A DNA stretch of 17,846 nt from Deltaproteobacteria bacterium (GTDB lineage Bacteria; SAR324; NAC60-12): positions 1 to 17,846 of the forward strand of contig JAYOTF010000048.1 in NCBI GenBank assembly GCA_038150265.1, written 5' to 3'. The notes below the pieces were generated by a model. The model did no database searches, was not told where the DNA came from, and worked only from the letters and a program-made list of their open reading frames with translations. Positions 1,274 through 15,645 of this stretch are shown here, in pieces (position 1 is the first letter of the stretch; the number at the start of each line of letters is the position of its first letter). Made by a program: the position numbers and the translations under genes.

Positions 1274-2752
1274 CTAGAGCTGCGAGGTCAGGTGGTACAC
1301 CCGCGCCTGCCGTGCGGAAAGGGCCTCCCACTGCTCGGCAACCTCCGGATTGGGCTCAAAGACCTCGGCTTCGTTCGTCATGGCGCTGGCGGCCTCTTCA
1401 AAGCTGCTGTACCAGCCGGCTCCCACTGCCGCAGAAATACCGGCTCCGAGAGACGACGCCTCATTGGACAGGCTCCGCTTGGCCGGAAGCCCTGTGGAGT
1501 CGGCAATCATCTGCATCCACAGCGCGCTCTGCGCTCCCCCTCCAATCACATTGATCTGCTGCAGGGCCACCCCCTGTTCCTGCATCGCCTTCAGCGCTCG
1601 GGCAGACTCCAGCGTGAGCGCCTCCAGCGAGGCTCGGTACAGGTGCGCCTGCGTGTGATGCGTCCCCAGCCCCAGAAACGCGCCCCGCGCTTGCGGATTC
1701 CAGTAGGGGTCCATGCAGCCGGCAAGGTACGTACAGGCGACCACGCCTTCGGAGCCGATGTCCAGGGTCCGGGCTTCCTGCTCCAGTCGGTTCAGCAGCG
1801 CGGCAGACCGCTGCTCGTCGGAAAAGTTATCCACGAACCAGTTGACAAAGTAGGCGCCAGCGCGCTGGACCGCTTCCAGGAAGTACCCCTCCCCGGTGGG
1901 AGACGTCATGGTCCGCCAGTAGTTGCTGAGGCGCAGCTCGGAAGACGAGGCACCCGCGATGATGGCGGTTCCCAGGTTGAGGTAGGCCCGTCCGCCTGCG
2001 ATGGCGTTCACTCCAAGTCCGGCGCACTGGCCATCTCCTCCGGCCGCAAAGAGCGGTGTCTTGGGGGCGAGCCCCAGCGGCTCGGCCACTGCCGGAAGGA
2101 CCTCGCCCAGTCGGGTTCCCGGGCGAACCGCTTCCGGAAGCTGCTGCGGGCTCACGTTCACGGCCTCCAGCAACGTCTGTGACCACTGCTTCTCGGCAAT
2201 GTCAAAGATGGCAAACGGGTCCGCACTGGTCCACGAGGTCTGGAAGGTTCCCGTCAGGCGATGGATGAGGTAGCTCTGGACGTCGAGCAGGTGTCGGGTC
2301 TGCTGGAGCACCTCCGGCTGGTGGTTGGCCATCCAGCGCAGCCGATACAGCACAGGGGTCACATCGACGGGCTTCCCGGTGATGCGGTGAATCTCGTCAC
2401 CGCCGACCTGTTCACACAGCTGCCCCACCTCTTCGAGCGCACGCTCATCAAGCCAGAGCATGGCCGGGCGGATGGAGCGGCCGTTCTCATCCAGAAAGGA
2501 CACCGTCTCCCGCTGGTTGGAAATGCCAATGCCGTCCACGCAGGTGGCATCCACGGGCTCCAGGGCCTGTTGCAGCGCAATCCGGTTGGCCTCCCACCAC
2601 TCATCGGGCTCCTGTTCGGCAAAGCCCGGCTGAGGCGCCGAGAGGGAAAGCGGCGCGCGGCCCTCACTGACCGGACGCCCCTGCTGATCCCAGACAATCG
2701 CCTTGACGGATTGTGTGGAGCTGTCGATGCCAATCACGTAACGGTCCTTCAT
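1274..2752 (-). CDS. FGGY-family carbohydrate kinase (xylulokinase-like)
   Basis: Motifs GIDSSTQSVKA, ISNQRET, LWLDER, AAGGDGQCAGLG, LNLGTA and IGGGAQS. Strong RBS (GGAGAGGAG). The ATG overlaps the regulator's TGA (ATGA, 2749-2752). Confidence 0.92.
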   Translation of the reverse strand: MKDRYVIGIDSSTQSVKAIVWDQQGRPVSEGRAPLSLSAPQPGFAEQEPDEWWEANRIALQQALEPVDATCVDGIGISNQRETVSFLDENGRSIRPAMLWLDERALEEVGQLCEQVGGDEIHRITGKPVDVTPVLYRLRWMANHQPEVLQQTRHLLDVQSYLIHRLTGTFQTSWTSADPFAIFDIAEKQWSQTLLEAVNVSPQQLPEAVRPGTRLGEVLPAVAEPLGLAPKTPLFAAGGDGQCAGLGVNAIAGGRAYLNLGTAIIAGASSSELRLSNYWRTMTSPTGEGYFLEAVQRAGAYFVNWFVDNFSDEQRSAALLNRLEQEARTLDIGSEGVVACTYLAGCMDPYWNPQARGAFLGLGTHHTQAHLYRASLEALTLESARALKAMQEQGVALQQINVIGGGAQSALWMQMIADSTGLPAKRSLSNEASSLGAGISAAVGAGWYSSFEEAASAMTNEAEVFEPNPEVAEQWEALSARQARVYHLTSQL

Positions 2753-3744
2753 GATCTCCTCTCCATCTGCAGTTCAGTCGCAGAGCCGGTTCCACTCAGC
2801 AGCGCTGAGGCCGTCTCATAATCGGTTACCAGGTGCGTCACGTACCCGCCCTTGAGGGTGGCTTTGATCGCGTCAATCTTTTGCTTGCCACCGGCCACTG
2901 CCAGCCGGCAGGGGATGGGCTTGATCTCCTCCAGTGTCACCCCGATCATGCGCTCGTCCATTTCGGTATAAATCTGGGAGCCGTCTTCATCGAGCATCCG
3001 GCCGATGATGGTTCCCACCGCGCCCTGCGCCTTGTAGCGCGACATGAGGGTTTCGCCAATGAACCCGGAACGCGCCACGGTGCTTTCTGGAGCAATGTCT
3101 CCAATGCCAAAAAGGATGATCCGGGAAGAGCGGATGGCCTCAAACTGGCTTTCGATCACGTCCTCCTGGAGCAACTCATTGCGGAGTCGGCTATGAGACA
3201 GCACGGCTGGAGCGAGGAAGTTCATGCAGCGCGCGTTGAGCTGATTGGCCATCACCGAGGTGCACAGCTCCGGAGAGAAGTCAAAGGTGCCCTGAATGCT
3301 GCCCACCACCTGCACCACCGTCAGGTTGCTCAACGAGGTCCGGGGCATTGACTGCGCCACCGAAAGCACCGTCTTTCCCCATGCCACGCCCACCACGTCA
3401 TTGGGTTCCAGCATCGCATAAAGCGTCCGGGCCGCGGCCTCCCCCAAGCGGTTCGCCAATTGTCCGTCTTCTGGCCCTCTCGGAATGACCATGCAGCCTT
3501 CCAACCCATAGGCCTGCTTCAGTTCCTGCGAGACGACCGTGTTTTCAATGGCCTTTTCATCAAACTTGATCGAGACAATCCCCTTGTCTCGCGCTTCCTG
3601 AAGGTAGTTCACCACCGATGCCCGGGAAACGCCCAACTCCTTGGCCACTTCGCTCTGGTTCAGTTGATCCACATAGTACAACCACGCTGCCCACACAATC
3701 ACATCCTGAAACTCAGGGGGCGCCTTCCGGAATTTGATCCTCAT
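2749..3744 (-). CDS. SorC/DeoR (LsrR/EryD-like) sugar-binding transcriptional regulator
   Basis: N-terminal HTH AAWLYYVDQLNQSEVAKELGVSRASVVNYLQEARDKGIV, then the sugar-binding domain motifs VGVAWGKT, FGIG, VAGGKQK and LVTD. Start placed at ATG 3744 (MRIKFRK), preceded by GAGAGG/AGGA, rather than at 3798. Confidence 0.92.
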   Translation of the reverse strand: MRIKFRKAPPEFQDVIVWAAWLYYVDQLNQSEVAKELGVSRASVVNYLQEARDKGIVSIKFDEKAIENTVVSQELKQAYGLEGCMVIPRGPEDGQLANRLGEAAARTLYAMLEPNDVVGVAWGKTVLSVAQSMPRTSLSNLTVVQVVGSIQGTFDFSPELCTSVMANQLNARCMNFLAPAVLSHSRLRNELLQEDVIESQFEAIRSSRIILFGIGDIAPESTVARSGFIGETLMSRYKAQGAVGTIIGRMLDEDGSQIYTEMDERMIGVTLEEIKPIPCRLAVAGGKQKIDAIKATLKGGYVTHLVTDYETASALLSGTGSATELQMERRS

Positions 3745-3995
3745 GCAGTCCTGACCTCTCTCATCATCAATCGTTGCTCCGTGACCACCACTTCCCATCC
3801 GGAACCCATGGCCTTTTGAGAGACTACGTGGGCTCCGGTAAAAAGCGAATTTATTTTTGGATTTGACATTGAACCCAAATTAGATTCAAGTCTATTTAAC
3901 TTTTATCAGAAGTTTGTGACTTTTGGTGAATCAAAAGTTAAAAAATTATGAATTTTGTACTATTCAGGCTTTCTATCAGTTGAGTTGTAAAAAAT
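3745..3995. promoter_or_regulatory. Divergent AT-rich promoter/operator region
   Basis: Sharp AT-rich island (about 3840-3995) in otherwise GC-rich DNA between divergent genes. Contains TTGACA at 3863-3868, the inverted repeat TGACTTTTGG-N4-TCAAAAGTTA at 3917-3940, and related boxes at 3897 and 3949. Confidence 0.75.
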
Positions 3996-5315
3996 ATGGG
4001 AAACTGGACCGCACTCATTGACGACATCATTCAGGGCCGCTGGCTCAATCCCGAGACAGGGGAATACGCTCAGGTTCCGTATGAGTCCATCATCATCGAA
4101 GACAGCCTTGATGGCCAGGAAGCCGACCTGCTGGCCAGCGTGGGACTGACCGACAACCTGGTGCTGGTGTGCGACGAAACCACCTACGGCGCCCTGGGCA
4201 AACGGGTGGAAGCCAACCTGCGCCAAGCGGGGCACCCGGTCACGCTGCTCACCCTCGATCACCCGCACGCCGACCTGGAGGAGGTCGCGCAGCTCAGCGA
4301 GAAAATTCGGTCCTTCGACGGTGTGGTCGCAGTGGGTTCCGGAACCATCAACGACGTCTGCAAGCACGCGACCTTGCAGAATCAGCAGCGTTACGCGGTC
4401 TTTGCCACCGCCGGCTCCATGAACGGCTACACCTCGACCACCGCCTCCATGCGTTTGGAATCCGGACTCAAGGTGTCCCTTCCCTCTCATGCGCCAGCGG
4501 GCTTCTTTGTGGACCTGGAAGTGAGCGCTCAGGCGCCGTCTTACCTGGCAGCCTCGGGCTTTGGAGACTGCCTCTGCCGCTCCGTGGCCCAAGTGGACTG
4601 GTGGATGTCGCACCGCCTGCTGGGAACGAAGTATCACCCCTCGGCGTACCTCATTCAGGAGCAGGATGAGCGGGAACTGAACGCCCGGGCGGCCGGACTG
4701 AAGGCCGGGCATCCGGAGGCGATCGGCTACCTCTTCCGGGTCCTGACCCTGTGTGGCCTCGGGGTTTCCTTTACCGGGGTCTCCAACCCGGGCTCCATGG
4801 GGGAGCATCAGATTTCACATTACATCGACTGCTTTGCCGGCGACCGCCACCCCGGCACCCTTCACGGGCAACAGGTCGGCGTGGCGTCTCTGACGATGGC
4901 ACGCCTGCAACGAGCGCTCCTGGCGCAAGACCGTCCCCCCGTGATGCAGGCCACCCAGGTCGATGCCACCGGAATGCAGCAGCGCATGGGCGCCAGCATT
5001 GCGGAGCAGTGTCAGGTTGAGTTTGAAAAGAAGGCCTTCACCGAAGCTTCGGTTGCAGCCGTGAATGCGCGGCTCGCGGAAATTTGGGACGACCTGAAGG
5101 CTGAGGTCCAGCCATTCCTCATTGCTGTTGAAGAAATGGAAACGATGCTCCGGGATTCCGGAGGACCCACTACCTATGAAGAGCTTGGGGTTGAGGGAGA
5201 CTTGTACCGAGAAGCGGTTGTGCATTGTCGCGAGATGCGCAACCGTTACTCCTTCCTTGACATCGCAGCCGACAGTGGCCTGCTTGAACCCTTTGCCGAT
5301 CAAGAGGTGGCATGA
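3996..5315 (+). CDS. AraM/EgsA-like sn-glycerol-1-phosphate dehydrogenase family enzyme (DHQS/Fe-ADH superfamily)
   Basis: Motifs AVGSGTINDVCK (NAD binding), TAGSMNGYTS, ASGFGD (metal Asp), GEHQISH and LHGQQVG (metal His residues). 439 aa. No clear Shine-Dalgarno; A-rich sequence precedes the ATG. Confidence 0.85.
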   Translation: MGNWTALIDDIIQGRWLNPETGEYAQVPYESIIIEDSLDGQEADLLASVGLTDNLVLVCDETTYGALGKRVEANLRQAGHPVTLLTLDHPHADLEEVAQLSEKIRSFDGVVAVGSGTINDVCKHATLQNQQRYAVFATAGSMNGYTSTTASMRLESGLKVSLPSHAPAGFFVDLEVSAQAPSYLAASGFGDCLCRSVAQVDWWMSHRLLGTKYHPSAYLIQEQDERELNARAAGLKAGHPEAIGYLFRVLTLCGLGVSFTGVSNPGSMGEHQISHYIDCFAGDRHPGTLHGQQVGVASLTMARLQRALLAQDRPPVMQATQVDATGMQQRMGASIAEQCQVEFEKKAFTEASVAAVNARLAEIWDDLKAEVQPFLIAVEEMETMLRDSGGPTTYEELGVEGDLYREAVVHCREMRNRYSFLDIAADSGLLEPFADQEVA

Positions 5316-6118
5316 AACCATTCCGAGACATGAGCATCGCCCTCAGCAAGAGCCTGAAGGGCGTTTTCTTTGACATTGACGACACCATCACCACCGAAGG
5401 ACGCCTGGAAGGGCATGCCTACCTGGCGGTGGAGCAGCTCCAGCAAGAAGGCCTCCTGACCATCCCCATCACCGGACGTCCAGCTGGGTGGTGCGACCTG
5501 ATTGCCCGCTTCTGGCCCGTTGATGGCGTGGTTGGAGAAAACGGCGCCTTCTCCTTTGCCTACGACCGCAAGAACGCCAAGATGCTCCGCTCCTTCGCGG
5601 TTCCGGAAGCCACCCGCAAGGAGGACCGCAAGAAGCTGGAGGCCCTGAAGCAGACCATCCTGGACGCGGTTCCGGGGTGTGCCATCAGCGCCGATCAGCA
5701 GTACCGCGAAGCGGACCTGGCCATCGATTTCTGCGAAGACGTCCCCGCCTTGCCGTACTCCGAGGTCGAGAAGATTCAGCAGCTCTTTGCGGACGCCGGC
5801 GCCGAGGCCAAGATTTCGTCCATCCACGTCAACGGCTGGTTTGGAAGCTACGACAAGCTGACCGCCTGCAAGCGGTTTGTGCACGAACAGTTCGGCATCA
5901 ACCTGGACGAAGAGAAGGAGCAGTTTCTCTTTGTCGGAGACAGCCCCAACGATGAGCCGATGTTCCAGTTCTTCCCGAACGCCTGTGGCGTTGCCAATGT
6001 GCTTCAGTTTGCCGAGACCCTGCAGCATCCTCCGGCCTGGATCACCGAGCAGCCGAGCGGGCAGGGGTTTGTGGAACTGGTGCAGCACGTGCTGGCTCAG
6101 CGACACACCCAGGGATAA
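5312..6118 (+). CDS. HAD-superfamily subfamily IIB hydrolase (putative sugar/polyol-phosphate phosphatase)
   Basis: Motif I FDIDDTIT, motif II ITGR, GENGA, conserved Lys in YDK, motif IV VGDSPND. ATGA overlap with the upstream gene. Confidence 0.88.
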   Translation: MKPFRDMSIALSKSLKGVFFDIDDTITTEGRLEGHAYLAVEQLQQEGLLTIPITGRPAGWCDLIARFWPVDGVVGENGAFSFAYDRKNAKMLRSFAVPEATRKEDRKKLEALKQTILDAVPGCAISADQQYREADLAIDFCEDVPALPYSEVEKIQQLFADAGAEAKISSIHVNGWFGSYDKLTACKRFVHEQFGINLDEEKEQFLFVGDSPNDEPMFQFFPNACGVANVLQFAETLQHPPAWITEQPSGQGFVELVQHVLAQRHTQG

Positions 6119-6123
6119 GGCTG

Positions 6124-7005
6124 ATGCGCAACCGGAGTCGTTTCATTCTGTCGGATCACCCCCTGCCCTGGCTCTTTCCGCTCGTGTCCGTGCTGGTGGT
6201 GTTCACCATCTACCCCCTGTTTTACAACATCTGGCTGAGCTTCCACGAGTACTCCACTCGCAAGCGCCGCCTGATTTCAGTGGGAGGCGACAACTGGGCT
6301 CAGCTGGCATCCGACTCGCGCTTCTGGGAATCCCTGAGCGTGACCTTCACCTACTTCCTGGTGGCCCTGGCCATTGAGTTGGTGCTGGGCATTGCCATTG
6401 CGCTGCTGCTCGACTCCGATGAGCCCACCTTCGGCATCCTCCGGGGGCTGCTCACGATGACCCTCGTCATTCCTCCAGCCATTGCCGGGATGATGTTTCT
6501 CCTGATGGAAGACGCGGAGTTCGGGATCATCAGCCTCCTGCTGCAGGACCTCGGGATTCTGGACCCCACGCAGCCCCTGCTTTCCACTCCGGGAACAGCG
6601 CTGGCGGGGGTGCTGCTGGCCGAGGTGTGGCAGTGGACCCCCTTCATGGTCCTGATCTTCATGGCCGGGTTGCGATCCCTTCCGCATGAGCCCTTTGAGG
6701 CGGCGATGATCGATGGCGCCTCTGGCTGGCAGATGTTCACCAAACTGACCCTGCCGATGATGAGCAAGGTCATCGCCATTGCGGTCCTCATCCGGGGCAT
6801 CGACCTCTTCCGGGTCTTTGACTACGTCTTTGTGATGACCTCCGGAGGCCCTGGTACCTCAACGTATGCCCTCAGCCTGTACTCGTGGCAGCAGACGTTC
6901 AGTTTTGTCAAATGGGGATACGGGGCCACCTTGAGTCTGGTGACCCTGCTGATTGTGCTGATTACGGCCAATCTCTTCATCAAAGTCATGAAGATCAAAT
7001 GGTAA
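6124..7005 (+). CDS. CUT1 carbohydrate ABC transporter permease (MalF-like)
   Basis: About six hydrophobic segments, EVWQWTPF, EAA loop EAAMIDGASGWQMF, and TSGGPG. Confidence 0.95.
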   Translation: MRNRSRFILSDHPLPWLFPLVSVLVVFTIYPLFYNIWLSFHEYSTRKRRLISVGGDNWAQLASDSRFWESLSVTFTYFLVALAIELVLGIAIALLLDSDEPTFGILRGLLTMTLVIPPAIAGMMFLLMEDAEFGIISLLLQDLGILDPTQPLLSTPGTALAGVLLAEVWQWTPFMVLIFMAGLRSLPHEPFEAAMIDGASGWQMFTKLTLPMMSKVIAIAVLIRGIDLFRVFDYVFVMTSGGPGTSTYALSLYSWQQTFSFVKWGYGATLSLVTLLIVLITANLFIKVMKIKW

Positions 7006-7009
7006 GGCT

Positions 7010-7882
7010 ATGACAGGAAAGCGCTTGCTGCGCATCGTGGTGGCTTGGGGAGTGGTGCTCACCTTCTTCTTCCCCATCTACTACTGGACCACCGTCGCAT
7101 TCAAGTCGGGGAAGGACGTCTTCACCAAGGATCCGGAGCTGTTTTTCTTCAATCCGACCTTTGAGAACTTCGAGAAGGTCTTTGGAATCTCCCTCGGGTT
7201 CGGGTTTGGCTCGCAGTCCACGGTCACACCGGGAGGAGGCAACTTCTACATGGGCCCCCGGCTCTGGGACACCATTGTGGTCGCCGTCGGGTCGACCTTC
7301 TGTGCTGTGCTCATTGCCACCCTCGCCGCCTATGCCCTTTCCCGCATCCGCTTCCGGGGACGGCACCAGTTTGTGGCCTGGGTCCTCTCCACCCGCATGA
7401 TGCCGCCGGTCGCTGTTGCGGTGCCCATGTTCTTCATCTACAAGGAATTTGGACTGCTGGACTCCTACCTCGGGATCATCCTCATTCACACCATCATGAA
7501 CCTGCCCCTGGCGGTGCTGTTGCTCAAGAGCTTCTTTGACGACATTCCTGCCGAGATTGATGAGAGTGCAATGATCGATGGGGCCACCCGCTGGGAAATC
7601 TTCTGGAAGGTCGTCCTGCCCATGGCCCGAGGAGGCCTGGCGGCCACGGCGGTTCTGTGCTTCATCTTCAGCTGGACGGAATTCCTCTTTGTGCTGACGC
7701 TGACCCAGACCAGCCTGAAGACGGTTCCAGTCGTCTCTTCAACGTTTGTCACCTCCATTGGCACAGCTTGGGGAAATATGGCCGCGCTTGGAGCCGCGTC
7801 TGTCATCCCCGCCTTCATCTTCATCCTATTGGTTCAAAAGCACCTGGTCCGTGGATTGACCATGGGCTCCTTGAAGCAATAG
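7010..7882 (+). CDS. CUT1 carbohydrate ABC transporter permease (MalG-like)
   Basis: AAYALSR, EAA loop EIDESAMIDGA, FIFSWTEF, and C-terminal QKHLVRGLTMGSLK. Confidence 0.95.
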   Translation: MTGKRLLRIVVAWGVVLTFFFPIYYWTTVAFKSGKDVFTKDPELFFFNPTFENFEKVFGISLGFGFGSQSTVTPGGGNFYMGPRLWDTIVVAVGSTFCAVLIATLAAYALSRIRFRGRHQFVAWVLSTRMMPPVAVAVPMFFIYKEFGLLDSYLGIILIHTIMNLPLAVLLLKSFFDDIPAEIDESAMIDGATRWEIFWKVVLPMARGGLAATAVLCFIFSWTEFLFVLTLTQTSLKTVPVVSSTFVTSIGTAWGNMAALGAASVIPAFIFILLVQKHLVRGLTMGSLKQ

Positions 7883-7888
7883 ATCCCC

Positions 7889-7926
7889 CGGCCCGCTCGG
7901 GCCGCAATCCCTCGGCAGCAATGCCG
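7889..7926 (+). other. Two small hairpins 5' of the solute-binding protein gene
   Basis: CGGCCC-GCTC-GGGCCG (7889-7904) and CGGCA-GCAA-TGCCG (7913-7926, GNRA tetraloop). Confidence 0.5.
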
Positions 7927-7955
7927 GACCCAAGTGGTAGAGCTTAGAGGTAACT

Positions 7956-9446
7956 ATGATGGATCAAACAAGAAAAGCGCATCTGGCGAACATCACGGAC
8001 AAGTACGTGAAGGGTCAGATGAACCGACGGAATTTCATGAAGAATGCCGCCAAGCTCGGATTAGGAGTCGGCGCCATGGCCTATGGCATGGGAGGACGCC
8101 CCTTCCTGAAGACCGCCCAGGCAGCCGACCTCGAGCCCTCTGCCGAGGTCCTGAGCTGGCTCCGGGATGTCGGAAAGCCCTTCCGTGGCACCACCCTCAA
8201 GCTGGCCACTGAGTCCACGCCGCCATCCAACGCGATTGCGACCCAACTCAAGCAGTACTTTGAGGAAGCCTCCGGAATCAAGATCGAGATCGAAGTCCTC
8301 CCCCTGGAGCAGGTCCTGCAGAAGCTGACGCTGGACGTGGCCTCCAGCCTGGGCACCTACGACCTCTACTACATCGACCAAAGCTGGGCCGCCAGCTTCT
8401 CTCGGGACGTCTACGACCCGCGCGAGCAGTACGAAGGCAACGCGGACCTCGCCATGCCGAACTACAACCTCGACGACTTCCTCCCCGCCCTTGTGGACGG
8501 CATTGCCAAGTACGAAGACCGCTGGGTTGGGGTTCCGTATGACATCCCGATCTTCATCATGATCTACCGCAAGGACATCTATGAGAAGTTCGGCCTGACG
8601 GCGCCCACCACCCTGGAGCAGCTCTACCAGAACTCGAAGATCATCACCGATGAAATGGGTCCGAACATGTACGGAACCTCCGGCCAGATGAAGTCCGGAC
8701 ACTACAGCCTCGAGTGCGACTGGACCGCCTGGCTGTGGGGACACGGTGGCTCCATCTTTGGGCCAGACGGCAAGTTCACCGGAAACGATGCCCAGGGCCT
8801 TGCGGCGCTGGACTACTGGACCAAGCTCGAAAAGACCATGCCCCCTGGCGTACACGGTTGGACCTGGGACGGACAGGGCCAGTCGGTGGCACAAGGCGTG
8901 GCCGCCTCCATGCTCAGCTGGGGGGAGTTCTTCCCGTACTTCGATGACCCGAATGCCACCAAGGTGTCCGGACTCTGCGAGGCCGTGGTGCCTCCGCAGC
9001 CGATTGCGCTCCGGAACAGCTCTCAGACCGGATACGGTGAAATTCCGGGAGTCGGTCACCAGGGGGGAAGCTCCCTCGCCGTGTCTCGCTACTCCAAGAA
9101 TGTGGATGCCGCCTGGATCTTCATGCAGTGGGCCACCTGTGCCGACACGCAGGCCCTCATCACCACCCTCGGAGGCGGAACGGGCCCCACCCGGACCAGT
9201 GTCTATGACGATCCGCGCGTCAAGGCCAATGCCCGCGTCGGCGCTGGCACCACCCGGCACCTCGACGTGGTCCGCGAAACCATCGCCAACCACATGGGCT
9301 CCGAGCCCGACCTGCCCGAGTGGGCGGAAATCTCCAGCGACACCATCCCTGTGGCGCTTGGCAAGTACTTCGCAGGAGACTACTCCTCACCGAAGGCCCT
9401 CCTCGACGACATCCAGAAGCAAGTGGACGACATCGTTGAAGGCTAA
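7956..9446 (+). CDS. CUT1 ABC transporter solute-binding protein with twin-arginine (Tat) signal peptide
   Basis: MNRRNFMK twin-arginine motif, hydrophobic stretch and AQA cleavage site, no lipobox Cys. SBP_bac_1-type segments (GVPYDIPIFIMIYRKDI, APTTLEQ, AAWIFMQWAT). RBS AGAGG upstream. Confidence 0.93.
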   Translation: MMDQTRKAHLANITDKYVKGQMNRRNFMKNAAKLGLGVGAMAYGMGGRPFLKTAQAADLEPSAEVLSWLRDVGKPFRGTTLKLATESTPPSNAIATQLKQYFEEASGIKIEIEVLPLEQVLQKLTLDVASSLGTYDLYYIDQSWAASFSRDVYDPREQYEGNADLAMPNYNLDDFLPALVDGIAKYEDRWVGVPYDIPIFIMIYRKDIYEKFGLTAPTTLEQLYQNSKIITDEMGPNMYGTSGQMKSGHYSLECDWTAWLWGHGGSIFGPDGKFTGNDAQGLAALDYWTKLEKTMPPGVHGWTWDGQGQSVAQGVAASMLSWGEFFPYFDDPNATKVSGLCEAVVPPQPIALRNSSQTGYGEIPGVGHQGGSSLAVSRYSKNVDAAWIFMQWATCADTQALITTLGGGTGPTRTSVYDDPRVKANARVGAGTTRHLDVVRETIANHMGSEPDLPEWAEISSDTIPVALGKYFAGDYSSPKALLDDIQKQVDDIVEG

Positions 9447-9454
9447 TTGAACCC

Positions 9455-9490
9455 GGTCGCAGGCTTCGGTCTGCGACCTTCTTTTCTGTT
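9455..9490 (+). terminator. Intra-operon intrinsic terminator-like or mRNA-stabilising hairpin
   Basis: 10-bp stem GGTCGCAGGC-TTCG-GTCTGCGACC with a cUUCGg tetraloop, followed by TTCTTTTCTGTT, immediately before the RBS (AAAGGAGG) of the SDR gene. Confidence 0.75.
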
Positions 9491-9501
9491 AAAGGAGGAA
9501 C

Positions 9502-10227
9502 ATGGCACAAAAACCCCTCGTCGCCATCACCGGCGCCAGTTCCGGAATTGGAGAGGCCACGGCTCGCGCCTTCTCCGATGCAGGGCACCCGCTGCTCCTG
9601 ATGGCCCGGCGACTCGACCGCATGGAAGCCCTCAACCTGCCCAACACCCTCTGCAAGCAGGTCGATGTCCGGGACCGCGACGCCCTTGCCGCGGCAGTGG
9701 CTGAAGCTGAAGCCCTTTACGGCCCAACGGACCTGATGTTCTGCAACGCGGGCATTGCCCGACTCGGCGACATTGGCGCCCAGGATCCGGAGGACTGGGA
9801 TGAAATGATCGACATCAACATCCGGGGCGTGATGTACTCCGTCCATGCTGTCATGAAGGGCATGATGGACCGCCGGCACGGGACGCTGGTGATGATGAGC
9901 TCCATCGCCGGACGCAAGGTTTACCCCGATCACACCGTCTACTGTGGCACCAAGTTCTTTGTTCACGGCGTTTCCGAAAGCCTCCGCGAGTACCTATCGG
10001 AGTACGATGTCCGGGTGCTGGTTCTCTCGCCTGGCATCATTGAAACGGAGGTCCTCGACCATGTGAAGGACCCGCAGACGCTCGCCAACTACAAGGCCAA
10101 CAAGGTGGCCATTGGCGGAGGCATTTCGTCTGACTACGTGGCCCAGCTCATCCTCGATGCCTACCAACTGCCCCAAAACGCGCTGGTTCAGGAAATCTGT
10201 ATCACTCCGACCCGGCAGAAATACTGA
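9502..10227 (+). CDS. Classical short-chain dehydrogenase/reductase (YdfG-like, probably NADP-preferring)
   Basis: TGASSGIG, ARR basic residues after beta-2, NAG, catalytic Ser (MSS) and YCGTK (YxxxK). Strong RBS at 9491-9498. Confidence 0.92.
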   Translation: MAQKPLVAITGASSGIGEATARAFSDAGHPLLLMARRLDRMEALNLPNTLCKQVDVRDRDALAAAVAEAEALYGPTDLMFCNAGIARLGDIGAQDPEDWDEMIDINIRGVMYSVHAVMKGMMDRRHGTLVMMSSIAGRKVYPDHTVYCGTKFFVHGVSESLREYLSEYDVRVLVLSPGIIETEVLDHVKDPQTLANYKANKVAIGGGISSDYVAQLILDAYQLPQNALVQEICITPTRQKY

Positions 10228-10237
10228 ACAGAGCGTC

Positions 10238-11305
10238 ATGTCTACTGTAGAATTCCAGAGCATCTCCAAGTCCTTCGGCAGCACCCAGGTCCTCAACGAA
10301 ATCTCCTTCAAGATTGAGGACCACGAGTTTGTGGTCCTGCTGGGGCCTTCCGGTTGCGGCAAGACCACCCTCCTGCGCATGACGGCCGGGCTCGAAAGCG
10401 TCTCTGCCGGAGACCTCCTCATTGGCGGAGAGCGGGTCAACGACGTGCACCCGCGGGACCGGAACATTGCGATGGTGTTCCAGAACTACGCGCTCTATCC
10501 CACCATGCGGGTGGATGACAACATCGCCTTCAGCCTCACCATCAACAAGTCCCCGCTGGAGAAGATCCGGGAAAAGGTGGAGTGGGCTGCCGGCATCCTC
10601 AACCTCAAGCCCTACCTTCAGCGCTTCCCCAAGGAGCTGTCGGGCGGGCAACGCCAACGCGTGGCCATGGGACGAGCCATGGTCCGGGAAGCCGGTGTCT
10701 TCCTGTTTGACGAGCCCCTCTCCAACCTCGATGCGAAGCTCCGGGCACACATGCGCATGGAAATTCGCCAGCTGCATGACAAGCTGAAGACCACGACCAT
10801 CTATGTGACACACGACCAGATTGAAGCCATGACCATGGCCGACAAGATTGTCGTCATGAACTCCGGACGCATTGAGCAGATCGGCTCCCCCGATGAAGTC
10901 TATGAGCGCCCCGTCAGCATCTACGTGGCAGACTTCATTGGCTCGCCCTCGATGAACTTCCTCGAAGGCCACGTGGTTGCTGAAAACGGCGAGCCCTACT
11001 TCAGCTGCTCCGGCCTGCGAGTGCCCCTTGGCCCTGACGCTGCCCCCTTTGCCGGAAAACCCGTCATCGGCGGCCTCCGGCCCACGGAAATTGGCCTCAC
11101 CAAAAATCCACACTCCCCGGTTAAGATTGTCTACAAGGAACGAACCGGAGCCGATGTGAACCTGTTTTCAGAAGCCGAAGGGCAAGAAATCCGCATCAGT
11201 GTTCCCAAAGACACCGATCTGGACATTGGTGACACCGTTACCCTTGAGATTGACGCCAGCAAGCTCCACCTCTTTGATCCGGTGACGGAAGCACGCATCA
11301 ACTAA
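10238..11305 (+). CDS. CUT1 ABC transporter ATP-binding protein (MalK/UgpC-like)
   Basis: Walker A GPSGCGKT, VFQNYALYP, LSGGQRQR, FLFDEPLSNLDA, YVTHDQ, FIGSP and a C-terminal TOBE/OB region. Start moved from 10112 to ATG 10238 (MSTVEF), which removes the overlap with the SDR. Confidence 0.95.
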   Translation: MSTVEFQSISKSFGSTQVLNEISFKIEDHEFVVLLGPSGCGKTTLLRMTAGLESVSAGDLLIGGERVNDVHPRDRNIAMVFQNYALYPTMRVDDNIAFSLTINKSPLEKIREKVEWAAGILNLKPYLQRFPKELSGGQRQRVAMGRAMVREAGVFLFDEPLSNLDAKLRAHMRMEIRQLHDKLKTTTIYVTHDQIEAMTMADKIVVMNSGRIEQIGSPDEVYERPVSIYVADFIGSPSMNFLEGHVVAENGEPYFSCSGLRVPLGPDAAPFAGKPVIGGLRPTEIGLTKNPHSPVKIVYKERTGADVNLFSEAEGQEIRISVPKDTDLDIGDTVTLEIDASKLHLFDPVTEARIN

Positions 11306-11328
11306 CCCCATCACTCAGAAGGAGTTTC

Positions 11329-11988
11329 ATGACCAAAGCCGAAAAAGAGCTACGGCAAGAAATCATCAATCAGTGCCTGTGGATGAATGCCTCTGGGCTC
11401 AACCAGGGAACCTCCGGGAACATCTCGGCGCGGTACAAGGACGCGATGCTGATCACCCCGAGCGGCATTCCGTACGACCAGCTCAAGCCCGAAATGATGG
11501 CGTCCATGCCCCTCGAAGGGGAATACGGCAGCTGGGAAGGCCCCCTCAAGCCGTCCACCGAGTGGCGCTTTCACCTCGACATCATGAAGGCCCGAGACGA
11601 CGTCAACAGCGTGGTCCATACCCACTCGACCTTTGCCACCAGCATCGCCATTACCGGACGCGAGATCCCGGCCTGCCACTACATGATTGCCGCTGCCGGA
11701 GGTCCCACCATCCGGTGTGCCCCCTACGCTCGCTTTGGGACGGAGGCGCTCTCTCAAAATGCCCTGGACGCCCTGGAAGGACGCACCGGCTGCCTGCTTG
11801 CCAACCACGGCGTGATTGCCACCGGAAGCTCCCTTGCGAAAGCCATGTGGCTGGCGGTGGAAATCGAAACGCTCGCCAAGCAGTACTTCTACAGCGCACT
11901 CCTCGGAGGAGCCAACATCCTGACCGATGAGCAGATCGACGAGACCCTCAAGGGCATGGCGAACTACGGGCTCCAGGACCCCAAGTAA
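11329..11988 (+). CDS. fucA: Class II aldolase, L-fuculose-1-phosphate aldolase (FucA/Ald2-like)
   Basis: GTSGNIS, ITPSG, PSTEWRFH (catalytic Glu), HTH and NHG (Zn His triad), CHYMIAAAGG, and C-terminal NYG tyrosine tail as in FucA. RBS AAGGAG. The symbol reflects family, not proven substrate. Confidence 0.85.
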   Translation: MTKAEKELRQEIINQCLWMNASGLNQGTSGNISARYKDAMLITPSGIPYDQLKPEMMASMPLEGEYGSWEGPLKPSTEWRFHLDIMKARDDVNSVVHTHSTFATSIAITGREIPACHYMIAAAGGPTIRCAPYARFGTEALSQNALDALEGRTGCLLANHGVIATGSSLAKAMWLAVEIETLAKQYFYSALLGGANILTDEQIDETLKGMANYGLQDPK

Positions 11989-12000
11989 CCTCGATTTTGA

Positions 12001-12168
12001 ACACGCCTGATCCTGTCTCTCTCTCCTACTTGAAGGTTGAGGCGTGTGAAGTGGCACCCGGGGCTCCGGCTTCTGGTGCTGCCGCCCAGCGGACGGTGGC
12101 GACATAACATCCGCCTTCTTTCTCATGTCCTCTCCTGGGCAGGAACAGGTTCTCTCGGTTCCTGCCCA
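12001..12168 (+). other. Cluster of tandem hairpins in a 222-bp intra-operon spacer (candidate structured RNA)
   Basis: ACACGCCT/AGGCGTGT (12001-12047); GTGGCACCCGGGGC-TCCG-GCTTCTGGTGCTGC (from 12051, UNCG loop); GCCGCC/GGTGGC (12081-12100); GACAT/ATGTC; perfect 11-bp TGGGCAGGAAC/GTTCCTGCCCA (12136-12168). Confidence 0.55.
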
Positions 12169-12210
12169 ACCCAACGGGTCACCCTCAACTCATTCGCAGG
12201 CTCCGCGTCC

Positions 12211-13266
12211 ATGGCTTCCGAACTCCTTCCTCCTCAAACCGAGGAGTACTCACGCTTCCTCGCTCTTTCTGAAGAGCTGGGCAAAAACCTGCTGCTGGTT
12301 CAGGCGGCAGGCGGGAACACGTCTCTCAAGCACAGCGGGCACCTCTGGGTGAAGGCCTCTGGAACCTGGCTGGCGGATGCCACCTCCCGCGCCATCATGG
12401 TCCCAGTGGACCTCGTCGCCCTCCGGCAGGCGCTCGCTCAAAACGACGCCCGAGCCGAGCACCCCCAGAACTTCAGCCTGGGACCCGAAGGTGGGCTCCG
12501 TCCTTCCATTGAAACCGTGGTCCACGCCGTGATGCCTCAAAAGGTCGTCCTGCACGTCCACTGTGTCGAGACCATCGCCTGGGCCGTGCAGACCGAGGCC
12601 GAGGCCCTGCTGGCGGAACGCCTCGCTGGCGAAAACTGGGCCCTCATTCCGTACACGCGCCCCGGGCTTCCACTGGCGCAGGCCATTCAGCAACAGATGA
12701 CGCCCGAGACCCGGGTCCTCATCCTCGGCAACCACGGCCTGGTGGTCGCCGGTGACACCCTTGACGAAGCCCGCCAGCGGCTCTACTCCGTCCACCATCA
12801 GCTGGCCCGGCCTCGGCGTCCCGACTCAGCAGCCCCCGTGGCCGAGTTGCGCGAGGCGGCGGCCCACACCCCTTACCGCCTTGCCGAAGAATCCGTTCAC
12901 AGTTTGGCAATGGACCCGCTTTCCCTTAAACTGGGCGCCGACGGGTCGATGTATCCCGACCACGTCATCTTCCTCGGGTCCGGACTCTCTGTGCTTCCCA
13001 CAGGAGCCTCCTTCTCCGACTACCTCCAGCGGTTTGGCGACGCGCCGCCCAAAGCGGTGGTGCTGGAAAACACCGGGGTCCTCATTCATGAAGAGGCCCC
13101 CCGAGGCATCGACGAAATGCTGCTCGGCCTCAAGGAAATCACGGCTCGTCTGAACGCCCATGATGCGGTTCGGAAGCTGCAGGTCGACGAAGAGGCGGCT
13201 CTGCTGAATTGGGATGCCGAGAAGTACCGACAGCTGCTGGCCCAGCGCCAGGAACAGGTGGCCTGA
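12211..13266 (+). CDS. Class II aldolase/adducin-fold protein (resembles the N-terminal domain of bifunctional RhaD-SDR proteins)
   Basis: LVQAAGGNTSLK, LWVKASGTWL, LRPSIET..HA, VLHVH, ILGNHGL and YPDHVIFLG. Start placed at ATG 12211 (351 aa); the ORF-track extension to 12037 runs through the hairpins and is not homology-like. Confidence 0.85.
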   Translation: MASELLPPQTEEYSRFLALSEELGKNLLLVQAAGGNTSLKHSGHLWVKASGTWLADATSRAIMVPVDLVALRQALAQNDARAEHPQNFSLGPEGGLRPSIETVVHAVMPQKVVLHVHCVETIAWAVQTEAEALLAERLAGENWALIPYTRPGLPLAQAIQQQMTPETRVLILGNHGLVVAGDTLDEARQRLYSVHHQLARPRRPDSAAPVAELREAAAHTPYRLAEESVHSLAMDPLSLKLGADGSMYPDHVIFLGSGLSVLPTGASFSDYLQRFGDAPPKAVVLENTGVLIHEEAPRGIDEMLLGLKEITARLNAHDAVRKLQVDEEAALLNWDAEKYRQLLAQRQEQVA

Positions 13267-13289
13267 GCCTTTTTTGCTCCAAGCTCAAC

Positions 13290-14582
13290 ATGACCAACGC
13301 ACACGATTTTCTCTGTCTGGGCCTCGACTTTGGAACCTCCGGGGTCCGGGCCATTCTCCTGGATGCCGACCAGCAGGTGGTGGCTCAGCACAGCACCCCC
13401 ATGTCTGTCGGTGGCGCCAACCCACGTGCCCCGGAAGTGTGGTGGCAAACCCTGGAGCACACGCTCCGGGGCCTCCGTGCCGCTCACCCGGACGCCCTGA
13501 CACGGGTCCGGGCCCTGGCCATTGATGGCACTTCCGGAACCATGCTGCCGGTGAACGCTTCCGGGCAGCCGCTGGCCGAGGCCTTGATGTACAACGACCC
13601 CGTCACCAATCCGGACCTTCTGGACGCAATTGCTCGCGAAGCCCCCAAGGAAAGCGCCGCCCACGGGGCCACCTCCGGACTCGCCAAGCTCCTCCAGCTA
13701 CAGGGCACCCCAGACGTCCACAAGGTCCTGCATCAGGCAGATTGGGCCGCTGGGCGGCTGATGGGCGATTTCCGTTTCAGTGACGAAAACAACGCGCTCA
13801 AAACCGGATACGACCCCATCTCCCGAGCCTGGCCGGAGTGGCTGAGCCGCACGGCTGCACAGGTGGACCTGCTTCCGGAAGTGAAGGAACCCGGCTCGCC
13901 TCTTGGTCCCCTTGCCCCAGATTGGGCAGAAGCCTTTGGGCTTCCTCCCGAAACGCTGGTGGTGGCAGGTTCCACCGATGGCTGCGCCGCCTTTCTCGCT
14001 ACCGGCGCTTCTGAAGTCGGAGATGGCGTCACCTCGCTGGGCTCCACCCTTGTTGTCAAACTGCTCTGCGAAGCGCCCATCTTTGCGCCTGAGTTTGGCA
14101 TCTACAGCCACCGGCTTGGGTCCACCTGGCTCGCTGGCGGCGCGTCCAACACCGGAGGAGCCGTCCTCGCCCACTTCTTCAGCAACGAGGAGCTGGCGAC
14201 CCTTTCTCGCGCCCTTGACCCGGAGCATCCGACCGGGCTCGACTACTACCCGCTCCTGAAGCGCGGGGAACGCTTCCCCCTCAACGACCCCAACCTCGAC
14301 CCACGGCTCGACCCACGCCCGGAGGACGATCACCTCTTTCTGCAGGGCATGCTGGAGGGCATGGCTCGGATTGAGACCCTGGCGTATCGGCAACTGGCAC
14401 AACTGGGCGCGCCGGCGCTCCAATCCGTCCGGACGGTGGGCGGAGGCGCCAACAACCCGGGCTGGACCACGATCCGGCAGAGTGGCCTGCAGGTTCCGAT
14501 GCTCCCGGTTGCGTCCGAAGCCGCCGCTTCCGGAGCCGCCCGGCTTGCCTGGCAGGGGTGGTGGGCGTCCGGAGGCTCATGA
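13290..14582 (+). CDS. FGGY carbohydrate kinase, short SePSK/AtXK-1 (D-ribulokinase-like) subfamily
   Basis: LGLDFGTSGVR, IDGTSGT, LHQADW, SDENNALKTGYD, GSTDGCAAFLA, TSLGSTLVVK, GIYSHRL, WLAGGASNTGG and YYPL..RGERFP, which I recognise as signatures of the roughly 430-aa cyanobacterial/plant-type subfamily. Start placed at ATG 13290. Confidence 0.85.
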   Translation: MTNAHDFLCLGLDFGTSGVRAILLDADQQVVAQHSTPMSVGGANPRAPEVWWQTLEHTLRGLRAAHPDALTRVRALAIDGTSGTMLPVNASGQPLAEALMYNDPVTNPDLLDAIAREAPKESAAHGATSGLAKLLQLQGTPDVHKVLHQADWAAGRLMGDFRFSDENNALKTGYDPISRAWPEWLSRTAAQVDLLPEVKEPGSPLGPLAPDWAEAFGLPPETLVVAGSTDGCAAFLATGASEVGDGVTSLGSTLVVKLLCEAPIFAPEFGIYSHRLGSTWLAGGASNTGGAVLAHFFSNEELATLSRALDPEHPTGLDYYPLLKRGERFPLNDPNLDPRLDPRPEDDHLFLQGMLEGMARIETLAYRQLAQLGAPALQSVRTVGGGANNPGWTTIRQSGLQVPMLPVASEAAASGAARLAWQGWWASGGS

Positions 14583-15421
14583 GCGGCGTGACCCTGACCA
14601 CCGTTGCCCAACTTGCCGAGGCCTTTGACGTCTTTCTCCTCGATCAGTTCGGAGTCCTTCACAACGGACAAGAGCCGTATCCGGGAGCCCTGGACGCCCT
14701 GGAGCGCCTTCAGGCTGCCGGGAAGCAGGTGATCCTGCTCTCCAACTCCGGAAAGCGTGCCGAGGTCAACCAGGTCCGGATGGAGCGCCTCGGCTTCTCT
14801 CGAGACCTCTTTCAGCGCCTGGTCACGTCTGGGGAAGTCGCTCACGCGCTGTTTCAGGAGCAGTTGACCTCCCTCGGCCTGCAGGAAGGCGCCCGGTGCT
14901 TCATCATCTCCCGAGACACCGACCGCTCGGCGCTGGACGGGACCTCGCTCCAGGAAGTGCCCTCGGCCGAGGAAGCGGACGTGGTCATTCTGATGGGCAG
15001 CGAGGCTGACCGGGAAGCAGTGGAGGTCACCCTGAAGCGCCTCCAGCCGGCCCTGGACCGGAACCTCCCCTGCGTGTGCCTCAATCCCGACAAGTGGATG
15101 CTCACGCCCAGTGGACTGTGTGCCGGGTCCGGAACCTTTGCCGAGCACTACGAAACCCAAGGAGGCGCCGTCCTCTGGATTGGAAAGCCCTACCCGGAGA
15201 TCTACCACTTTGCGCAGCAGCATGGTGGTTTTTCCCAAGACGAGGCCGTGGCCATCGGAGACTCGATTGAGCACGACATCGCCGGAGCCACTCGCTTTGG
15301 GTGTGCCGGGGCCCTGGTTCGTTCCGGGATCCTCGTGGACGCCACGCCCGACGAGCTGGAACAACTCATGACCGAGCATCAGGCTCGTCCCCAGTTTGAG
15401 CTGCCCACCTTCTGCTGGTAG
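14579..15421 (+). CDS. HAD-superfamily subfamily IIA hydrolase (TIGR01459-like, NagD/AraL class)
   Basis: Motif I LLDQFGVLH, LLSNS, VTSGE, NPD, IGKPYP and motif IV IGDSIEHDIAG. ATGA overlap with the kinase stop (14579-14582). Confidence 0.87.
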   Translation: MSGVTLTTVAQLAEAFDVFLLDQFGVLHNGQEPYPGALDALERLQAAGKQVILLSNSGKRAEVNQVRMERLGFSRDLFQRLVTSGEVAHALFQEQLTSLGLQEGARCFIISRDTDRSALDGTSLQEVPSAEEADVVILMGSEADREAVEVTLKRLQPALDRNLPCVCLNPDKWMLTPSGLCAGSGTFAEHYETQGGAVLWIGKPYPEIYHFAQQHGGFSQDEAVAIGDSIEHDIAGATRFGCAGALVRSGILVDATPDELEQLMTEHQARPQFELPTFCW

Positions 15422-15626: not shown

Positions 15627-15645
15627 CTTGTCCGTTAGGGTAGAA

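Follow-up and report, generated by a model that had tools for sequence, protein, structure and literature searches.

The 17,846-base contig JAYOTF010000048.1 of a SAR324 bacterium, analyzed here in its entirety and referred to as the window, carries a real, self-regulated gene cluster for the import and degradation of a small sugar alcohol. It belongs to an assembly of 3.39 Mb that is 97.8% complete, and our genome collection comprised 88 genomes from the phylum of the host. A scan of 24 long open reading frames (ORFs) against Pfam and NCBIfam delineated thirteen genes, with an R-K1 operon on the minus strand and eleven genes running divergently on the plus strand. Every gene listed in a preliminary description of this DNA was recovered at its place, with corrected starts for A2, K2 and P2, and the view of a regulated locus for uptake and catabolism is supported. 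Direct reading of the sequence also confirmed the three ATGA translational couplings that had been proposed, R/K1 (2749-2752), D1/P1 (5312-5315) and K2/P2 (14579-14582). Isomerases, mutarotases and glycosidases had been reported missing, and indeed the scan of the 24 long ORFs detected none of these families. Note that none of the enzymes in the locus reached an NCBIfam equivalog cut-off; the only cut-offs passed were those of TIGR01459 by P2, of the generic HAD-IIB subfamily by P1 and of its subfamily model by the transporter ATPase.

K1 (1274-2752, minus strand) is an FGGY kinase of the XylB-like type, as evidenced by scores of 193 bits for Pfam FGGY_N and 110 bits for FGGY_C. The XylB model TIGR01312 yielded 324.5 bits, below its cut-off of 380.25, and the nearest solved relative is the xylulose kinase of E. 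coli (2itm, E 6.5e-55). Identity to the kinase in the eryA position of S. meliloti is approximately 25%, and K1 and the second kinase of the locus, K2, are about 22% identical; FucK model scores were poor for both. The regulator R (2749-3798, minus strand) belongs to the SorC family (Pfam Sugar-bind, 230 bits), and its score of 203 bits for the Bacillus DeoR model remained below the cut-off of 420. Between R and the divergent genes lies an AT-rich region of 197 bases (3799-3995), a putative operator/promoter with inverted repeats at 3906-3925/3932-3951 and 3884-3904/3933-3953, and with the motifs GGATTTGACATT, ATCAAGT and TGAATTTTG that are conserved in two relatives from the same genus. A consensus scan detected no sigma-70 consensus promoter in this divergent region, and counts did not exceed the shuffled expectation.

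The plus strand opens with D1 (3996-5315), a dehydrogenase of 439 residues related to sn-glycerol-1-phosphate dehydrogenase (G1PDH) and AraM (Pfam Fe-ADH_2, 124 bits). Its score for the NCBIfam G1PDH equivalog NF002022 was 147.8 bits, far below the cut-off of 413, and its nearest solved relative is 9h4x, a G1PDH of 414 residues (E 1.9e-35). The GD, GEHxxSH and LHG motifs of D1, which we take to be ligands for zinc or another metal, align with those of 9h4x, 3ce9 and 4rgq, solved structures of G1PDH or glycerol dehydrogenase. Near residue 140, in contrast, D1 reads S-M-N-G-Y-T-S where the solved G1PDH and glycerol dehydrogenase structures have S-x-D-G, and the S-M-N-G-Y pattern recurred in 106 of 120 D1 homologues, the other 14 being without a match. 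This pattern may be a specificity signature of the D1 family. Relatives of D1 number in the thousands. Rhizobium, Mesorhizobium, Bradyrhizobium and Ensifer supply the named ones, which share 62-65% identity with D1 and mostly carry the annotation sn-glycerol-1-phosphate dehydrogenase. Fused forms of D1 were not seen among proteins of 770-2195 residues, which is weak evidence.

Translationally coupled to D1 is P1 (5312-6118, plus strand), a HAD-IIB phosphatase that scored 64 bits against the TIGR01484 cut-off of 41.8. A sequence search returned no solved relative of P1. Its invariant columns include residues resembling the HAD motifs (D21/D23/T25, T54-G55-R56 and G209-D210/D214), and the AlphaFold model, with a pLDDT of 95.7, matched best the archaeal HAD-IIB proteins 1wr8 (Z 21.6, rmsd 2.6, 224 residues aligned) and 1kyt (Z 19.8), followed by phosphatases for trehalose-6-phosphate and sugar phosphates and by MpgP. 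Among the 50 fold matches listed there were phosphatases only and no phosphomannomutase, a result still compatible with a mutase.

Downstream of P1 follows a block of transport genes, all on the plus strand. T1 (6124-7005) and T2 (7010-7882) are CUT1-type ABC permeases (BPD_transp_1, 54 and 62 bits); T1 shares 68-75% identity with copies from rhizobia, Paracoccus and Thiothrix-like bacteria, and T2 70-82% with alphaproteobacterial ones. The periplasmic solute-binding protein (SBP, 7956-9446; SBP_bac_1, 101 bits) probably starts at ATG 8019, which would yield a twin-arginine-like leader with the residues RRNFMK. It had no NCBIfam match, and its nearest solved relative is 5iai (E 9.4e-40), a structure described as containing ribitol (PMC8468352). 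Directly 3' of the SBP gene, a stem-loop (9455-9478) with a 10-pair stem including 7 G-C pairs runs into the T-rich tail TTCTTTTCTG. This element is possibly a partial intra-operon terminator or attenuator that would raise expression of SBP over that of the downstream genes, a lead only, since the terminator-like sites in the window (11, with a shuffled mean of 15.4) are not above expectation. The block is completed by a classical short-chain dehydrogenase (SDR, 9502-10227, 241 residues; adh_short, 150 bits) and a MalK/UgpC-type ATPase (10238-11305; ABC_tran, 105 bits, with OB_MalK and TOBE_2) that passed the UgpC subfamily cut-off of 432 with 462 bits. The SDR is the best-conserved protein of the locus, with identities of 71-82% across classes, and it matched only generic NCBIfam SDR models, each below cut-off.

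The tail of the operon consists of two aldolase-fold proteins, a kinase and a phosphatase. A1 (11329-11988, plus strand) is a FucA-type class II aldolase (Aldolase_II, 182 bits) that stayed below the cut-offs of PRK08087 (225.8 bits, cut-off 264) and TIGR01086 (212.1 bits, cut-off 400.25), and aligns with E. coli FucA along its entire length (1fua, E 4.8e-58, residues 7-216 against 5-212). It contains the STE, HTH and ANHG stretches, to which we assign metal-binding and catalytic roles on the assumption that they act as in the E. coli enzyme. A1 is 62% identical to the 222-residue class II aldolase of the S. meliloti polyol locus and 81-83% identical to the gene after D1-P1 in SAR324-like relatives. 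A2 (12211-13266, plus strand) is a class II aldolase-fold protein of 351 residues (Aldolase_II, 82 bits), most likely starting at ATG 12211 rather than at 12037. Pairwise alignment places its SIE, HVH and GNHG stretches opposite STE, HTH and ANHG of A1, and A2 shares 45% identity with a 351-residue class II aldolase located between eryB and an FGGY gene in S. meliloti; relatives at approximately 49% identity abound in Mesorhizobium and Ensifer. A2 is also 28% identical to the N-terminal half of a bifunctional aldolase/SDR, the RhaE half of RhaEW, has no SDR domain and scored 69.9 bits for TIGR02632 (RhaD_aldol-ADH), with a cut-off of 567.75. Combining A2 and the free SDR into a split RhaEW was considered and rejected, the SDR being 23% identical over 107 residues to a RhaW-type domain.

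The second FGGY kinase, K2 (13290-14582, plus strand; 430 residues, start most likely ATG 13290), is of the SePSK/AtXK-1 type. Its nearest solved relative is SePSK (5htn, E 1.5e-98), its score for the XylB model was 118.5 bits (cut-off 380.25), and it is 54% identical to the FGGY gene beside lalA in S. meliloti. The ATP turnover of SePSK is stimulated by D-ribulose, and its physiological role is stated to be unknown (PMC4880283). P2 (14579-15421, plus strand; start most likely ATG 14579) is a HAD-IIA phosphatase that scored 235.3 bits for TIGR01459, a model of the hypothetical-equivalog type, with no function assigned to the family and a cut-off of 103.75. It shares 46% identity over 275 residues with the last gene of the corresponding triad in a Rhizobium genome, and 44% over 158 residues with a stretch within the S. 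meliloti record for which the annotation has no gene. Note that in this record (CP090106.1, L100, 15330-16185) the gene in the rbtC position is unlisted and may be disrupted or merely missing from the table. With A2, K2 and P2 contiguous, in the manner of the three-gene suboperon lalA-rbtB-rbtC, the sequence comparisons suggest homology of A1 to S. meliloti fucA1, of A2 to lalA, of K2 to rbtB and of P2 to rbtC. This suboperon has been tied genetically to the catabolism of adonitol (ribitol) and L-arabitol in S. meliloti and is called "the key component" of polyol loci of the Bradyrhizobium type (PMC3599248).

A survey with one genome per species retrieved 64 loci from other species, in which the window proteins were compared by tblastn, and features were counted in the 38 loci with full 10-kb flanks. 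Around D1, K1 was present in 37/38 loci, R in 36/38, P1 in 33/38, SDR in 31/38 and a related SBP in 30/38, figures that do not represent independent events since the surveyed species are related to one another. The arrangement of the locus is beyond chance. An FAD enzyme of the EryB/GlpD type lies beside D1-P1 in 15 of the 38 loci; a class II aldolase of any kind occurs in 26, a RhaEW-like bifunctional aldolase/SDR after the ATPase gene in 22, a FucA-like aldolase in 4 and an A2-like protein in 4. Carriers of the core are many rhizobia, roseobacters, lichen-associated Acetobacteraceae, Thiothrix-like bacteria and SAR324-like marine bacteria. The layout varies, with D1-SDR-permeases-SBP-kinase-P1-ATPase as an alternative order. 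In Acidiphilium, K1 and R are divergent from D1-P1-glpD-transporter-FucA-like, the transporter being of an unrelated CUT2 type, and there is no SDR. One S. meliloti strain has K1-R/D1-P1 followed by a GlpD-like stretch (a partial-length match missing from the annotation), transporter, SDR, ATPase and a RhaEW-like gene. On the conjugative plasmid p42a of R. etli CFN 42 (L073, 9138-19124) we found a degraded copy of the core with kinase, regulator, D1, SDR and a bifunctional aldolase/SDR listed, and neither a transporter nor a HAD gene in a gene table that is known to be incomplete.

The triad A2-K2-P2, in turn, accompanies the core in only 4 of the 64 loci, with A2 and K2 alone in one more. It also occurs within rhamnose loci, as in Aminobacter sp. 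MSH1 (pAM01; L108, 8974-12150), where it lies between rhaS and rhaI in the order rhaS-triad-rhaI-rhaM-FucA-like and its third gene is annotated as a TIGR01459 HAD, and in a further locus (L015, 2069-6537); in Mesorhizobium composti the triad is followed by RhaI (842 bits). Because of these rhamnose loci, the job of the triad may be a general handling of ketose-1-phosphates rather than one specific for pentitols. The conservation of the gene combination holds for the core of K1, R, D1, P1 and SDR, and not for the tail. A single conserved unit of 13 genes was rejected, since tail genes stand beside the core in few loci and are found in erythritol-type and rhamnose loci as well. The view of the locus as one indivisible pathway of 13 genes without any known match is not supported.

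In a sister genus of SAR324-like bacteria, an operon R-K1-eryA-like-2-hydroxyacid dehydrogenase-A2-K2-P2 is divergent from SBP'-permeases-D1-P1-A1. The eryA-like gene is 58% identical to that of S. meliloti, and an rbtA-like gene is also in the cluster. As all these genes are clustered, core and tail are linked here once more, in another layout. D1-P1-A1 are contiguous in this genus, but in the window the transporter-plus-SDR block (6124-11305) sits between P1 and A1. This block is about 70-82% identical to alphaproteobacterial or Thiothrix-like copies, whereas D1, K1, R and P1 reach no more than 51-64% identity with those copies and are closer to the sister genus. The contrast in identity, together with the contiguity of D1-P1-A1, points to a mosaic operon that would consist of a SAR324-type D1-P1-A1 unit, a triad of the lalA-rbtB-rbtC type and, inserted, a transporter-plus-SDR block shared with alphaproteobacteria that looks laterally exchanged.

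The G+C content of the region is approximately 60% in the window versus about 44-46% in the sister genus, within one family (L087-L089). The cluster is flanked on one side by a GFO/IDH/MocA oxidoreductase gene (111-1229), convergent with K1, whose best model was levoglucosan dehydrogenase (133 bits, cut-off 650) and which is retained only in a same-genus relative (87%). On the other side, after a gap of 206 bases, ugpB starts at 15628 (435 bits, cut-off 411) and is followed by the start of ugpA from 17010, the two representing a separate importer for sn-glycerol-3-phosphate; this importer does not adjoin D1 in any of the other 64 loci. As these three genes are not neighbors of D1 in other species, they were left out of the locus.

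We found no description of the K1/R/D1/P1/SDR core in the literature, and searches for the biochemistry of LalA, RbtB and RbtC retrieved no paper; only engineered routes via xylulose-1-phosphate and ribulose-1-phosphate turned up. Of the earlier statement that the locus matches no described pathway, the part concerning the core thus stands, in line with the unreached equivalog cut-offs; it does not extend to the tail, with its homology to fucA1, lalA, rbtB and rbtC.

The reading that we favor, with a probability of roughly 40%, is a route in which a pentitol is phosphorylated first, to pentitol-1-phosphate, and then oxidized to pentulose-1-phosphate, the latter being either cleaved to dihydroxyacetone phosphate (DHAP) and glycolaldehyde or converted to a 5-phosphate. 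The CUT1 transporter would import a small acyclic polyol, with a pentitol as the most likely candidate, under the control of R, and K1 would phosphorylate a terminal carbon. D1 would subsequently oxidize the hydroxyl group adjacent to the phosphate ester to produce a ketose-1-phosphate, as the stereochemical counterpart of the FAD-dependent enzyme of the EryB/GlpD type. For this product two fates are conceivable. A1 could cleave it to DHAP and glycolaldehyde, or P2 and/or P1, together with the D-ribulokinase-like K2, could shift the phosphate from C1 to C5, after which A2, possibly an AraD-like epimerase, would adjust the stereochemistry so that the product can enter the pentose phosphate pathway. 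Both G1PDH and FucA have a well-established stereochemistry. If the G1PDH-type configuration at C2 and the FucA-type configuration at C3 and C4 hold, the simplest predicted substrate is D-arabitol, which would yield D-ribulose-1-phosphate.

We favor phosphorylation ahead of oxidation because D1 is accompanied by a coupled phosphatase, by polyol-phosphate dehydrogenases of the EryB type and by DHAP-type aldolases, and because there is a precedent in S. meliloti, where the kinase EryA is reported to be used for erythritol, adonitol and L-arabitol (PMC3599248). The link to pentitols is drawn from the ribitol held by the relative of SBP, the homology of the tail to fucA1, lalA, rbtB and rbtC, and the response of the K2 relative to D-ribulose. 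In this respect the phosphorylate-first idea of the preliminary description agrees with the 15/38 loci with an EryB/GlpD-type enzyme, the 26/38 with a class II aldolase and the S. meliloti kinase, and it faces a strong competitor in the order of steps discussed below. It is possible, and in our estimate rather unlikely, that the D1 family as a whole represents a new NAD(P)-dependent polyol-1-phosphate dehydrogenase derived from archaeal-type G1PDH, a mirror-image partner of EryB. Together with K1 it would then define a widespread route that starts with a kinase and converts pentitols, with D-arabitol as the predicted one, to pentulose-1-phosphates, for cleavage to DHAP and glycolaldehyde or transfer of the phosphate to C5.

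Several observations weigh against the favored route. XylB, the model that scores closest for K1, represents a family that phosphorylates ketoses, which does not suggest a polyol kinase. With asparagine replacing aspartate in the S-x-D-G motif of D1, a phosphorylated substrate is not assured, and SDR and P1, in spite of their high conservation, have no necessary role in the proposed steps. No class II aldolase lies within 10 kb in 12/38 loci, and fucA1 is reported to be dispensable for the growth of S. meliloti on the three polyols (PMC3599248). The 45% identity of A2 falls short of the 49% cut-off applied to LalA homologues in the same source, and the names fucA1, lalA, rbtA, rbtB and rbtC were assigned by us from the order and family of the genes in a single annotated record. 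Finally, a paralogous module elsewhere in the genome appears to fit the reverse order of steps, with the G1PDH-like enzyme in another role.

In this reverse order, oxidation would precede phosphorylation. SDR, and perhaps D1 in the manner of glycerol dehydrogenase, would act on the free polyol to form a pentulose, K1 and K2 would produce pentulose-5-phosphates, and A2 would epimerize them for the pentose phosphate pathway; D1 and P1 would have an accessory role comparable to that of AraM and AraL, and A1 would be dispensable like fucA1 in S. meliloti. The paralogous module occupies about 14250-27110 of another contig of the same genome (C27; locus L107, 1749-14623) and comprises SBP, permeases, ATPase, kinase, a SorC regulator, a further permease and SBP, a D1 paralogue and an SDR. 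Its kinase passes the XylB cut-off with 407 bits, the D1 paralogue (448 residues) is about 30% identical to D1, and the module contains neither a HAD phosphatase nor an aldolase. Such a combination fits an oxidation-first route, which is also favored by the proximity of K1 to XylB, the presence of SDR in 31/38 loci, the deviation of D1 from solved G1PDH in the S-x-D-G motif and the parallel with AraM/AraL, in addition to the D-ribulose response of the relative of K2 (PMC4880283). G1PDH activity of AraM is cited in PMC5059525. On the other hand, oxidation first leaves no role for the HAD phosphatase coupled to D1, for the EryB/GlpD-type enzyme in 15/38 loci or for the DHAP-type aldolases in 26/38. 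Acidiphilium keeps K1, R, D1, P1, a GlpD-like enzyme and a FucA-like aldolase without the SDR, and the S. meliloti kinase is reported to be used on the pentitols themselves (PMC3599248). Considering that K1 is nearest to xylulokinase, that the paralogous module exists and that SDR and P1 lack a necessary role in the favored route, we regard oxidation first as a strong rival, possible although on balance unlikely.

Phosphorylation first could also serve tetritols (erythritol, D-threitol or L-threitol), an option that we consider improbable. Here K1 would form a tetritol phosphate with the glycerol-1-phosphate configuration at C2, and D1 would oxidize it to erythrulose-1-phosphate. The latter would be isomerized to erythrose-4-phosphate, or A1 would split it into DHAP and formaldehyde. 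The EryB/GlpD-like gene in 15 of the 38 related D1 loci would suit such a pathway, as would the presumed complementary stereochemistry of D1 and EryB that follows from the specificities of G1PDH and GlpD. Ahrensia moreover has a triosephosphate isomerase (TIM), RpiB, DeoR and an EryC-like protein, and another locus contains Dak1/Dak2 and RpiB. In the host genome, however, which is 97.8% complete, no homologue of RpiB, EryC or Dak was found. Its only TIM match shows 38% identity, a single GlpD-like gene (30%) lies elsewhere, and GlcD-like genes scored below cut-off. Without RpiB, an EryC-like protein and a second TIM, a tetritol route to erythrose-4-phosphate is therefore unlikely, and formaldehyde is an unattractive catabolic end. 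Both the pentitol in the nearest solved relative of SBP (PMC8468352) and the ties of the tail genes to pentitols, not erythritol (PMC3599248), likewise speak against tetritols.

It is quite improbable that D1 is a true G1PDH that would, together with P1, convert DHAP via glycerol-1-phosphate to glycerol as a redox valve, or provide for the synthesis of ether-type lipids, and would stand outside the actual sugar-alcohol pathway. The annotation of its homologues, the alignment of the metal-site motifs with solved G1PDH and the small archaeal HAD-IIB proteins as nearest folds of P1 are in line with this proposal. The score of 147.8 bits remains remote from the equivalog cut-off of 413, though, the family carries asparagine in place of the aspartate in S-x-D-G, and a lipid role leaves the association with a kinase, a SorC regulator and an importer over 38 loci unexplained. 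PcrB/GGGPS (PF01884) was not found in the genome, 97.8% complete, under conditions where control genomes responded. Uptake and processing of autoinducer-2, with R as LsrR and K1 as LsrK, is barely conceivable: the divergent R-K1 pair with an ABC importer resembles lsrRK/lsrACDB, and the models for LsrR and LsrK gave 156.8 bits on R and 178.4 bits on K1, but both scores stay far short of their cut-offs (486 and 528) and are surpassed by other models, the transporter is of the CUT1 type and not the ribose-type transporter of Lsr, and the ORFs scanned include no further Lsr-type gene such as LsrF or LsrG.

Sugar alcohols, among them ribitol, arabitol and erythritol, serve algae, fungi, lichens and plant roots as major carbon currencies. 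Genes of the D1 core are annotated as "sn-glycerol-1-phosphate dehydrogenase" or "3-dehydroquinate synthase", labels that are probably misleading and could wrongly suggest archaeal-type lipids in these bacteria. Solving the route would correct this annotation and provide a function for a large family derived from G1PDH, would explain the need of lalA-rbtBC for a second kinase and a phosphatase, and would perhaps define a physiological role for SePSK/AtXK-1 kinases. Should D1 indeed turn out to be a polyol-1-phosphate dehydrogenase, chemistry could be assigned to lalA-rbtBC and also to the XK-1/SePSK kinases of plants and cyanobacteria, for which we came across no established physiological role, with RbtC and RbtB as a phosphatase-kinase pair that shifts pentulose-1-phosphate to the 5-phosphate.

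Among known systems, the araABDLMNPQ operon of B. subtilis places AraM, a G1PDH, and AraL, a HAD phosphatase of the HAD-IIA class, beside the AraNPQ importer. The window resembles it in having a G1PDH-family dehydrogenase and a HAD phosphatase next to a CUT1-type importer, but P1 belongs to HAD-IIB, equivalents of araA, araB and araD are missing at family cut-off, and there is no PcrB. The E. coli D-arabinose route via D-ribulose-1-phosphate ends in DHAP and glycolaldehyde, the same end products as proposed here for A1. In the window, however, FucI is absent, and the ketose-1-phosphate would derive from a polyol phosphate and not from a ketose kinase. RhaEW cleaves L-rhamnulose-1-phosphate to DHAP and oxidizes the aldehyde (PMC3870299). 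A2 is a stand-alone relative of its RhaE half, whereas the window lacks the fused SDR domain as well as the rhamnose isomerase (rhaI) and mutarotase (rhaM) of the rha locus.

In the erythritol pathway of Brucella, the kinase EryA is followed by the polyol-phosphate dehydrogenase EryB. The logic of this pathway in Brucella and Rhizobium is shared with the route favored here, in that the polyol is phosphorylated first and the carbon beside the phosphate ester is then oxidized. EryB is an FAD enzyme, whereas D1 has the NAD(P)- and metal-dependent G1PDH fold and would presumably act on the opposite configuration at C2, and the isomerases EryC, TpiA2 and RpiB are lacking in the window and the genome.

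The closest comparison is provided by the locus of S. meliloti and the Bradyrhizobium type, with the genes eryD, mptABCDE, eryA, rbtA, fucA1, eryB, lalA-rbtB-rbtC, eryC and eryR-tpiB-rpiB. The S. meliloti record that we used represents the locus of Geddes and Oresnik for erythritol, adonitol and L-arabitol, and reads: sugar-binding regulator, two-ATPase transporter, carbohydrate kinase, 2-hydroxyacid dehydrogenase, class II aldolase (222 residues), glycerol-3-phosphate dehydrogenase, class II aldolase (351 residues), FGGY kinase, an unlisted gap, sugar-phosphate isomerase, DeoR, TIM and RpiB. A Rhizobium genome that carries the D1 core has a second locus of the ery type, which begins with permeases, two ATPases and an eryA-like kinase and continues with an A1-like gene (59%), an EryB-like gene, A2 (47%), K2 (51%), P2 (46%) and an EryC-like gene. 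The window differs from the S. meliloti locus in lacking eryA, rbtA, eryB, eryC, tpiB and rpiB, and R is only 28% identical to the protein in the eryD position. K1, at about 25% identity, is no orthologue of EryA, and a search of the host genome found no eryA-like gene above about 26% identity. The two-ATPase Mpt transporter contrasts with a one-ATPase CUT1 system whose SBP is 23% identical to the protein in the mptA position, and the S. meliloti locus is without the G1PDH-like dehydrogenase, the HAD-IIB phosphatase and the SDR of the window. Both loci nevertheless share a SorC-family regulator, an ABC importer, two different FGGY kinases, two class II aldolase-fold proteins, a TIGR01459-type HAD and dehydrogenases positioned to follow the kinase. 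The window joins a widespread core, for which we found no description, to genes of the kind known from rhizobial polyol loci.

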